Positions 9,541 to 11,090 of a DNA stretch of 64,000 nt are shown here, one piece after another. Numbering within the stretch: position 1 is the first letter of the stretch; each line of letters begins with the position of its first letter. The notes beneath the pieces were generated by a model. The model was not told the DNA's origin. It saw nothing but the letters and a program-made list of their open reading frames with translations, and did no database searches. The DNA is from Escherichia coli. GTDB taxonomy: Bacteria; Pseudomonadota; Gammaproteobacteria; Enterobacterales; Enterobacteriaceae. The position numbers were made by a program, and so were the translations under genes. The stretch lies in the NCBI RefSeq assembly GCF_030013595.1, contig NZ_CP122768.1; one strand, given 5' to 3'.

Positions 9541-9554
9541 CGGATGCGGCGTAA
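9541..9554. repeat. REP (palindromic unit) left half, interrupted by IS insertion
   Basis: GCCGGATGCGGCGTAA, continued after the IS by ACGCCTTATCCGGCCTAC. Confidence 0.6.
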
Positions 9555-9586
9555 TGAACTGAACCCCAAAACCTGGACAGTTTCAG

Positions 9587-10309
9587 TTAACCGGCTTTTT
9601 GATGCTCAGTCCGGTATTCTACCGGACTGAGTCCCCCAAGACTGAGTTTTATTCTTTTTTGATTCCAGTAAGTTATGTATTCGTTAACGGCATTTTCCAG
9701 CTCTTCTACATTTCTGTAGTCCCGGCGATAGTACATTTCTTCTTTCAGGTGACCAAAGAAGTTCTCCATTACCGCATTATCAAGGCAGTTGCCCTTGCGC
9801 GACATGCTCTGCACTAACCCTCTGTCCGCCAGGGCGGACTGATAACTTTTTATCCGGTAATGCCATCCTTGATCACTGTGGAGCAGCGGTTTCTCCCCTT
9901 CAGCAAGGCTTTCCAGCCCCTTATTTAACATCCGCTTCACCAGCTCCTCTGTAGGCCTGCAGGCAGTTTCCCACGCCACGATTTCCCCGTTAAACAAATC
10001 AAGTATCGGGGACAGGTACAGTTTTTGTCCGCCAGCCCTGAATTCGGTGATATCTGTCACCCATTTCTCACAGGGAGCTTCCGCTTTGAACTGCCGCTGA
10101 AGGATATTTTCTGCAGCGAGTCCCATATTTCCCCGGTAAGACCGGTATTTCTTCAGGCGCACAGGAGACTTCAGGCCGAGCTGTTGCATCAGTTTTCGCA
10201 CCGTTTTGCCACTGAACTTAAGACCTCTTTTCTGAAGCTCACAATGGATCCGCCGGTACCCATAACATCCCCGGTGTTCATGGAAGATGGAGGCTATGAG
10301 CTGTTTCAC
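9587..10309 (-). CDS. IS transposase OrfB (DDE catalytic domain); expressed as OrfAB by -1 frameshift, frame extends upstream of this Met
   Basis: 240 aa from first Met; rve-type integrase motifs. Confidence 0.8.
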   Translation of the reverse strand: MKQLIASIFHEHRGCYGYRRIHCELQKRGLKFSGKTVRKLMQQLGLKSPVRLKKYRSYRGNMGLAAENILQRQFKAEAPCEKWVTDITEFRAGGQKLYLSPILDLFNGEIVAWETACRPTEELVKRMLNKGLESLAEGEKPLLHSDQGWHYRIKSYQSALADRGLVQSMSRKGNCLDNAVMENFFGHLKEEMYYRRDYRNVEELENAVNEYITYWNQKRIKLSLGGLSPVEYRTEHQKAG

Positions 10310-10413
10310 ATCAGCATACTTGTCCTTAGCCTTCTGCAGTGACAGCTGGTAGTACAGCGTGCTTCTGGCCAGCCCTGCAGCCTTTAACAGGTCAGACTGG
10401 CAGTGTCCGCACC

Positions 10414-10944
10414 TCAGGCTCCGGATGACTTTCGTTTTTTCTCCAGCTCCTGGCGCTTTTTTTCCAGGAGATGCTCCTGCATGGCTTTCAGATATGCATT
10501 TTCTGCGCGAAGATAACGCAGCTCATTCTTCATCTCTTCCGGCGTCATGTTTGCCTCGTTTTCATGGGTATCATCAGAACGGGTCATGCTTTTCTCCTTC
10601 CTGCGCCTGATAAAGGCCTCATTACCAGATTTGCGGTAGCCTTTTATCCAGTTTTTAACCGTGTTGTGGCTGGGAATGTTAAACCGGGCAGCTACCCGGG
10701 GTAGAGACTCAGAATGCCCGAGAGCATAAAGAACCACGCAAAGTTTATCTTCAGGAGAATAGCTACGCTTGTGTCTGCAATCCAGTGCACGAGGACCGTG
10801 AAGAAGAAAAAGATTAATCCAGTGTGAGAGGCTGGTGTGAGAAAGTTGAAAGAGTTTTGCCGTAGAAATGATGCCTGCATGACCAGCCAGGTAATGATTT
10901 ACAGCGGCAAGTTTTACTTCAAATGAATGTTTCATAAACTGCAC
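10414..10944 (-). CDS. IS transposase OrfA (HTH plus leucine zipper)
   Basis: 176 aa; ends just after slippery heptamer A AAA AAG (+ strand T-run 10457-10463). Confidence 0.8.
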   Translation of the reverse strand: MQFMKHSFEVKLAAVNHYLAGHAGIISTAKLFQLSHTSLSHWINLFLLHGPRALDCRHKRSYSPEDKLCVVLYALGHSESLPRVAARFNIPSHNTVKNWIKGYRKSGNEAFIRRRKEKSMTRSDDTHENEANMTPEEMKNELRYLRAENAYLKAMQEHLLEKKRQELEKKRKSSGA

Positions 10945-10986
10945 CTTCAGATGTCAGATTATGTCCAACATTTGGGGTGCAGTTCA

Positions 10987-11090
10987 GTAAACGCCTTATC
11001 CGGCCTACGGTTCGATGCGATTTGTAGGTCGGATAAGATGCGCCAGCATCGCATCCGACAATAAGTGCCGAATGCGACCTACATTCACAT
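10987..11090. repeat. BIME: REP right half plus additional REP copies
   Basis: ACGCCTTATCCGGCCTAC..., GTAGGTCGGATAAGATGCGCCAGCATCGCATCCGAC palindromic units. Confidence 0.6.

Follow-up and report, generated by a model that had tools for sequence, protein, structure and literature searches.

To decide what lies between ybhC and ybhJ in the 64,000-nucleotide stretch of Escherichia coli DNA analyzed here (the window), we asked whether the interposed sequence is, as the original prediction held, an IS3-family element resembling IS1397 that entered a REP palindromic unit precisely. The range 9541 to 11090 given in that prediction takes in the insertion sequence (IS) and the remainder of a BIME; the IS proper, bounded by its inverted repeats and a target site duplication (TSD), occupies positions 9555 to 10986 on the minus strand (1432 bp, 48.5% G+C). 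It ends in 25-bp terminal inverted repeats with the termini 5'-TG...CA-3':

10962 to 10986, minus strand: left terminal inverted repeat (transposase orientation), TGAACTGCACCCCAAATGTTGGACA, agreeing with the other end at 21 of 25 positions
9555 to 9579, minus strand: right terminal inverted repeat (transposase orientation), TGAACTGAACCCCAAAACCTGGACA on the plus strand

Read along the plus strand, the junctions run ...TTTGCCGGATGCGGCGTAA / TGAACTGAACCCCAAAACCTGGACA ... TGTCCAACATTTGGGGTGCAGTTCA / GTAAACGCCTTATCCGGCCTAC..., and the 16-nt terminus motif occurs within the 64-kb window at the two IS ends only (chance expectation, 0.09 matches). RefSeq copies labelled "IS3-like element IS1397 family transposase" by PGAP match the element with 100% identity over its 1432 bp, and the name IS1397 is used here on the basis of these labels and of the element's behavior. 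The prediction was to be abandoned if a non-REP-targeting IS proved the best match; the best match is the REP-targeting IS1397 itself. Among 5426 complete E. coli genomes, a near-full-length copy was detected in 1707 and any IS1397 match in 3485; of the matching places, 7608 were chromosomal and 7 lay on plasmids, and nearly all matches were at least 95% identical to the element in the window. In addition, a scan of species-representative genomes found the 16-nt terminus TTTGGGGTKCAGTTCA in many phyla, identifying it as a generic end of the IS3 family. Among the matches listed for it, one locus carried IS1397, a 283-bp fragment with 99.3% identity in E. albertii (L059); also among the matches listed, TTTGGGGT(G/T)CAGTTCA was found in Bacteroidota, Collinsella, Streptococcus, Neisseria, Burkholderia, and others, often close to the ends of contigs and in several copies per genome. 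This distribution suggests that the 16-nt terminus is a widely conserved IS3-family end.

The coding capacity of the element comprises the following features:

10414 to 10935, minus strand: orfA, 173 aa, with a helix-turn-helix part (Pfam HTH_28 / HTH_Tnp_1) and a heptad-like C-terminal stretch
10456 to 10462, minus strand: A_AAA_AAG slippery heptamer, a predicted programmed -1 frameshift site in the correct phase relative to the orfA ATG
9587 to 10935, minus strand: orfAB fusion transposase, 449 aa after the -1 shift (Pfam HTH_21, rve, rve_2)

The coding sequence called by PGAP starts at the orfA ATG at 10935, and a second open reading frame (orfB) lies downstream of orfA in the -1 frame of the minus strand, with its end at 9587. 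The heptamer is phased as the codons GAA AAA AAG, from which a -1 slip is predicted to give the 449-aa product without interruption; at the same locus of HCP5S3_I2, a near-identical E. coli strain from pig faeces, PGAP annotates a two-piece coding sequence with the note "programmed frameshift," the coordinates of which correspond to window positions 9587 to 10935. OrfAB scored 387.2 bits against the NCBIfam model NF033516 (IS3 family transposase; cutoff, 160), spanning profile positions 1 to 369 of 369, while its match to Pfam rve spanned positions 2 to 102 of 102. The catalytic motif was D295/D355/E391, with K398 at E + 7 and spacings of D(60)D(36)E. The IS3-family and IS1397 features tested were thus all found in the element of the window: the predicted 1432-bp length, OrfA/OrfB arrangement, and A-AAA-AAG site are each present within 9555 to 10986, and the assignment to an IS3-family, IS1397-like element was borne out by the identity to PGAP-labelled IS1397 and by the score on the IS3 equivalog model. 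The RNA fold 3' of the slippery site was no better than that of shuffled controls (z = -1.6), so that a frameshift-stimulating structure was not demonstrated there. A simple consensus scan of positions 9300 to 11300 returned no sigma-70-like promoter, a terminator scan of the same interval returned one terminator-like hairpin, a number within chance expectation, and an Rfam search of positions 7500 to 13500 gave no match.

The sequences flanking the element were then read as follows:

9539 to 9554, plus strand: left half of the split REP (palindromic unit), GCCGGATGCGGCGTAA
9551 to 9554, no strand assigned: left copy of the TSD GTAA, present as a single GTAA in K-12 and other empty sites
10987 to 10990, no strand assigned: right copy of the TSD GTAA, likewise single in K-12 and other empty sites
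10987 to 11008, plus strand: right half of the split REP, with a CTAC tail, GTAAACGCCTTATCCGGCCTAC
11024 to 11059, plus strand: second REP of the BIME, inverted (GTAGG...CCGAC) and intact
11065 to 11082, plus strand: third REP, a remnant only, GTGCCGAATGCGACCTAC

When the IS and one GTAA were removed in silico, the palindrome GCCGGATGCGGCGTAAACGCCTTATCCGGCCTAC was regained, and the ybhJ-ybhC intergenic region of K-12 MG1655 contains exactly this sequence with GTAA once, as do the empty sites of O157:H7 PV15-279 and strain 88-3493. The in silico removal and the K-12 allele confirm that the flanks rebuild one REP with a 4-bp GTAA duplication. The K-12 check proposed with the original prediction returned the allele exactly as expected, and both REP halves, whose absence from the uninterrupted allele had been named as evidence against the prediction, are present in it. 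An 800-nt reconstructed empty site was contiguous in 5353 of the 5426 complete genomes, and the occupied arrangement (at least 80% of the query covered) was detected in 12 of the 5426. The restored 34-nt unit is predicted to form a hairpin with a folding energy of -11.3 kcal/mol under DNA parameters, a value that only 2 of 200 shuffles equaled or bettered; the GTAA in this hairpin corresponds to the last stem base plus three loop bases, placing the IS at the hairpin apex.

The target has the attributes of a REP within a BIME, namely, a restored hairpin, a CTAC tail, alternating orientation, and genome-wide repetition, and the 800-nt query carrying the ybhC-ybhJ BIME had a median of 25 matching places per genome. 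A strict regular expression for intact REPs gave no match in the 64-kb window, the pattern being too narrow. BIME copy number at this locus varies: when window positions 11009 to 11098 were compared with positions 6765 to 6999 of the K-12 sequence analyzed, a further 94-bp REP pair, absent from the window, was seen to separate the second REP from the remnant in K-12. This difference agrees with PMC3333891, which describes strain-to-strain variation in how many tandem BIMEs a locus carries, for BIME-2 and atypical BIMEs.

With respect to the genomic context, the element is placed among three landmarks:

8178 to 8192, minus strand: phage lambda attB core GCTTTTTTATACTAA, between ybhB and ybhC, unoccupied and intact
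8239 to 9522, plus strand: ybhC, with its stop codon 32 nt before the IS
11099 to 13360, minus strand: ybhJ, convergent with ybhC, with its stop codon 112 nt from the IS end

The attB core has one exact match in the window (0 in 100 shuffles) and lies 1.36 kb from the IS, so the location foreseen for the insertion, between ybhC and ybhJ and near attB, proved correct. The transposase gene has the same orientation as ybhJ. Since convergent 3' ends flank the site on both sides, no gene is interrupted, and the insertion is probably near neutral, although the split REP directly downstream of ybhC could alter the 3'-end stability of ybhC mRNA. The window otherwise represents ordinary E. coli backbone (uvrB-bio, ybh, mod, gal, tol-pal, and cyd). 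Downstream of cydA (window positions ~45900 to 50000), the annotation of the near-identical genome gives two hypothetical proteins followed by glmS, glmL, and subunit E (methylaspartate mutase), an accessory cluster that we take to be absent from K-12. The IS site next to bio-attB-gal is a strain-specific polymorphism that could serve as a lineage marker.

Comparison with other lineages revealed that the same REP has been entered elsewhere. The junctions in the window and in HCP5S3_I2 read ...GGCGTAA / IS / GTAAACGCC, and this GTAA-type insertion into the ybhC-ybhJ BIME was found in 2 of the 5426 complete genomes and as one recombined half junction (BH100). In SCU-482 (1902 to 3334), the junctions read ...GGCGTAAAC / IS / AAACGCC, 2 bp further along and with the TSD AAAC, while in 377323_2f and EC12 (1902 to 3334 in each) they read ...GGCGTAAAT / IS / AAATGCC, with the TSD AAAT. 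Given that the GTAA and AAAC/AAAT junctions lie 2 bp apart, the ybhC-ybhJ REP must have been entered independently two or more times, a mildly new point. The AAAT junction is possibly a third independent event. No T-allele empty site (GTAAATGCC) was found for it, the best contiguous empty sites being 97.7% identical and the two inspected carrying C. The IS orientation is identical across the window, HCP5S3_I2, SCU-482, 377323_2f, and EC12, and the IS copies of the last three differ from that of the window at 12 to 14 positions. It seems doubtful that IS1397 prefers the ybhC-ybhJ REP to the several hundred others in the genome: IS1397 places number in the thousands, whereas a genome holds only a few hundred REPs, so that some chance recurrence is expected, and no hotspot is therefore claimed. 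Such a preference, if true, would suggest that the choice of target is modulated beyond REP sequence by local context, for example by the type of BIME, by convergent transcription, or by the nearby lambda attB.

Several of these genomes differ from the window in other respects. SCU-482, 377323_2f, and EC12 carry a tyrosine integrase gene directly upstream of ybhC (positions 1 to 450), and their attB is probably prophage occupied. In BH100, the IS1397 copy (3016 to 4446), annotated as a frameshifted pseudogene, has the window-type junction GTAAACGCC on the ybhJ side and a different REP, by fiu, on the other (GTAGGCCGGATAAGGCGTTC / IS); such mixed junctions point to an inversion or deletion via recombination between two IS1397 copies. 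HCP5S3_I2 is not strictly identical to the window, as its ybhC-ybhJ copy (6401 to 7832) differs at one IS position, and its copy between ysaA and avtA (1501 to 2932) is 100% identical to the IS of the window.

To evaluate REP specificity across further copies, metagenome contigs were scanned with a 26-nt IS1397-specific terminus, which yielded 61 contigs, 59 of them with at least 30 nt of flank, representing 38 distinct sites. The REP outer-stem motif ATC[AC]GG[CT] started 8 to 12 nt from the IS end in 35 of the 38 sites (92%), compared with 0.8% of random 25-nt windows in the E. coli sequence of the window, which substantiates the REP-targeting behavior predicted for the element. As judged by eye at the metagenome sites, both REP orientations occurred at a given IS end in comparable numbers, indicating no overall orientation preference. 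Of the 13 contigs in which both ends were present, nine had a direct duplication of 3 or 4 bp, and in these nine the hairpin was restored. The ysaA-avtA copy of HCP5S3_I2 also splits a REP, with the 3-bp TSD AAA, and of the 6 IS1397 places in this genome, the two looked at were both in REPs. The question originally attached to the prediction, whether copies genome-wide all sit in REPs, thus has a largely affirmative answer: 35 of the 38 metagenome sites and 2 of 2 in HCP5S3_I2 do, and three sites are not REP-like (the right-end flanks of L137, L164, and L183).

Some metagenome contigs showed other peculiarities. In L152, L165, and L171, three of the 13 contigs with both ends, the flanks do not match, each deriving from a different REP, and no duplication is shared; this could be due to recombination between copies or to assembly chimeras. 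L154, which holds both ends, has no clean duplication; L158 and L159 have seemingly REP-like sequence in unusual contexts; and the copies in L173 (1248 bp) and L146 (1427 bp) carry internal deletions.

In the literature, PMC1525189 and PMC3184786 describe IS1397 as specific for REPs of E. coli and related enterobacteria, the former attributing the choice of REP to the transposase and not to the IS ends (Wilde et al. 2003), and a title cited in PMC2817692 refers to REP-independent transposition, at least in Yersinia pestis. A 2006 genome survey found no more than two copies of IS1397, of which one lay in a REP. The 38 sites (92% REP), the occurrence of both orientations, and the 7608 chromosomal versus 7 plasmid places update that survey and confirm the specificity population-wide, while leaving the published picture of IS1397 unchanged.

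Could the locus be explained otherwise? REPs are targeted by several unrelated IS families (PMC1525189), so that association with a REP does not by itself identify an element, and one might consider IS621 (IS110 family), ISKpn1, or a REP-associated tyrosine transposase locus instead of IS1397. We give this reading virtually no credence, given that the protein is recognized by the IS3 equivalog model and not by the others, that its chemistry is of the rve DDE type, and that the element has terminal inverted repeats and a TSD; it is, furthermore, fully identical to copies labelled IS1397, and IS621 reportedly enters on the REP's 3' side, beyond the inverted repeat (PMC3184786), whereas the element in the window sits in the apex. 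Family models and sequence identity together refute another REP-targeting element. Nor is there any appreciable probability that the REP-like flanks belong to the element or are a chance likeness, with no targeted insertion into a preexisting REP. REP-like hairpins near the termini are indeed found in some mobile elements, and beyond this the idea is an abstract possibility; however, IS-free genomes have both halves joined as an intact palindrome with one GTAA, and the REPs around other copies differ from one another and occur in either orientation, which identifies the REP halves as target DNA and not cargo. The empty sites refute the REP halves as the element's own sequence.

The copy might also be a dead relic, no longer mobile, that arrived when the entire ybhC-ybhJ segment was exchanged through homologous recombination and not through transposition in this lineage. 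Two other genomes share the window junction, and BH100 has half of it, so that it is inherited or exchanged and not unique to the strain; some copies elsewhere are, in addition, annotated as frameshifted pseudogenes. Against this, the copy in the window has kept both inverted repeats and every catalytic residue, its orfA and orfAB are intact, and it is identical to a copy at a different locus of the near-identical genome of HCP5S3_I2, indicating recent transposition in that lineage. We consider the relic reading improbable, and it bears only on the time of movement, not on the identity of the element. We are nearly certain that positions 9555 to 10986 represent an intact IS1397 that transposed into the apex of a REP hairpin, in the BIME that separates ybhC from the convergent ybhJ. 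IS1397 and its REP targeting are already known, and the copy in the window behaves as published; it provides a clean natural case of a published IS recognizing a host repeat hairpin, its importance being otherwise mainly one of annotation.

Direct evidence at this locus concerns sequence identity, coding capacity, the target, the TSD, and the empty site, and the mechanism outlined here is drawn from the IS3 family and from published work on IS1397. Ribosomes translating orfA would slip by -1 at A_AAA_AAG in a fraction of rounds, giving the OrfAB DDE transposase; OrfA by itself acts as a DNA-binding regulator in the IS3 family. OrfAB would then excise a copy of the element as a circle with abutted ends (copy-out-paste-in), and the circle would be integrated via staggered cuts 3 or 4 bp apart, the repair of which would leave the duplication. 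The target REP would be chosen by the transposase protein and not by the IS ends, as PMC1525189 reports.

Among known systems, the closest is IS1397 as characterized in the E. coli BIME work of Bachellier, Clement, Wilde, and Hofnung (cited in PMC1525189 and PMC3333891), with which the element in the window shares the 1432-bp length and the orfA/orfB arrangement with an A_AAA_AAG frameshift. Its 3- to 4-bp duplication, insertion at the center of the palindromic unit, and near-exclusively chromosomal location equally characterize the element in the window, and there is no substantive difference between the two. ISKpn1, an IS3-family element of Klebsiella pneumoniae, is a relative that also targets REPs (PUs) with the specificity residing in its transposase (PMC1525189); set apart here by description, it differs in its host and in its PU type and is not the sequence found here. 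IS621 (IS110 family) also enters REPs in E. coli, but it uses an unrelated DEDD-type recombinase, has no terminal inverted repeats, and, according to PMC3184786, inserts outside the inverted repeat, on the 3' side of the REP, whereas IS1397 lies in the apex. IS911, IS3, and IS150 have in common with IS1397 the domain architecture, the A6G -1 frameshift, DD(35)E, TG...CA ends, and a 3- to 4-bp TSD, and it is by homology to them that copy-out-paste-in transposition is attributed to IS1397. These three elements show weak target preference, in contrast to the strongly REP-specific IS1397.
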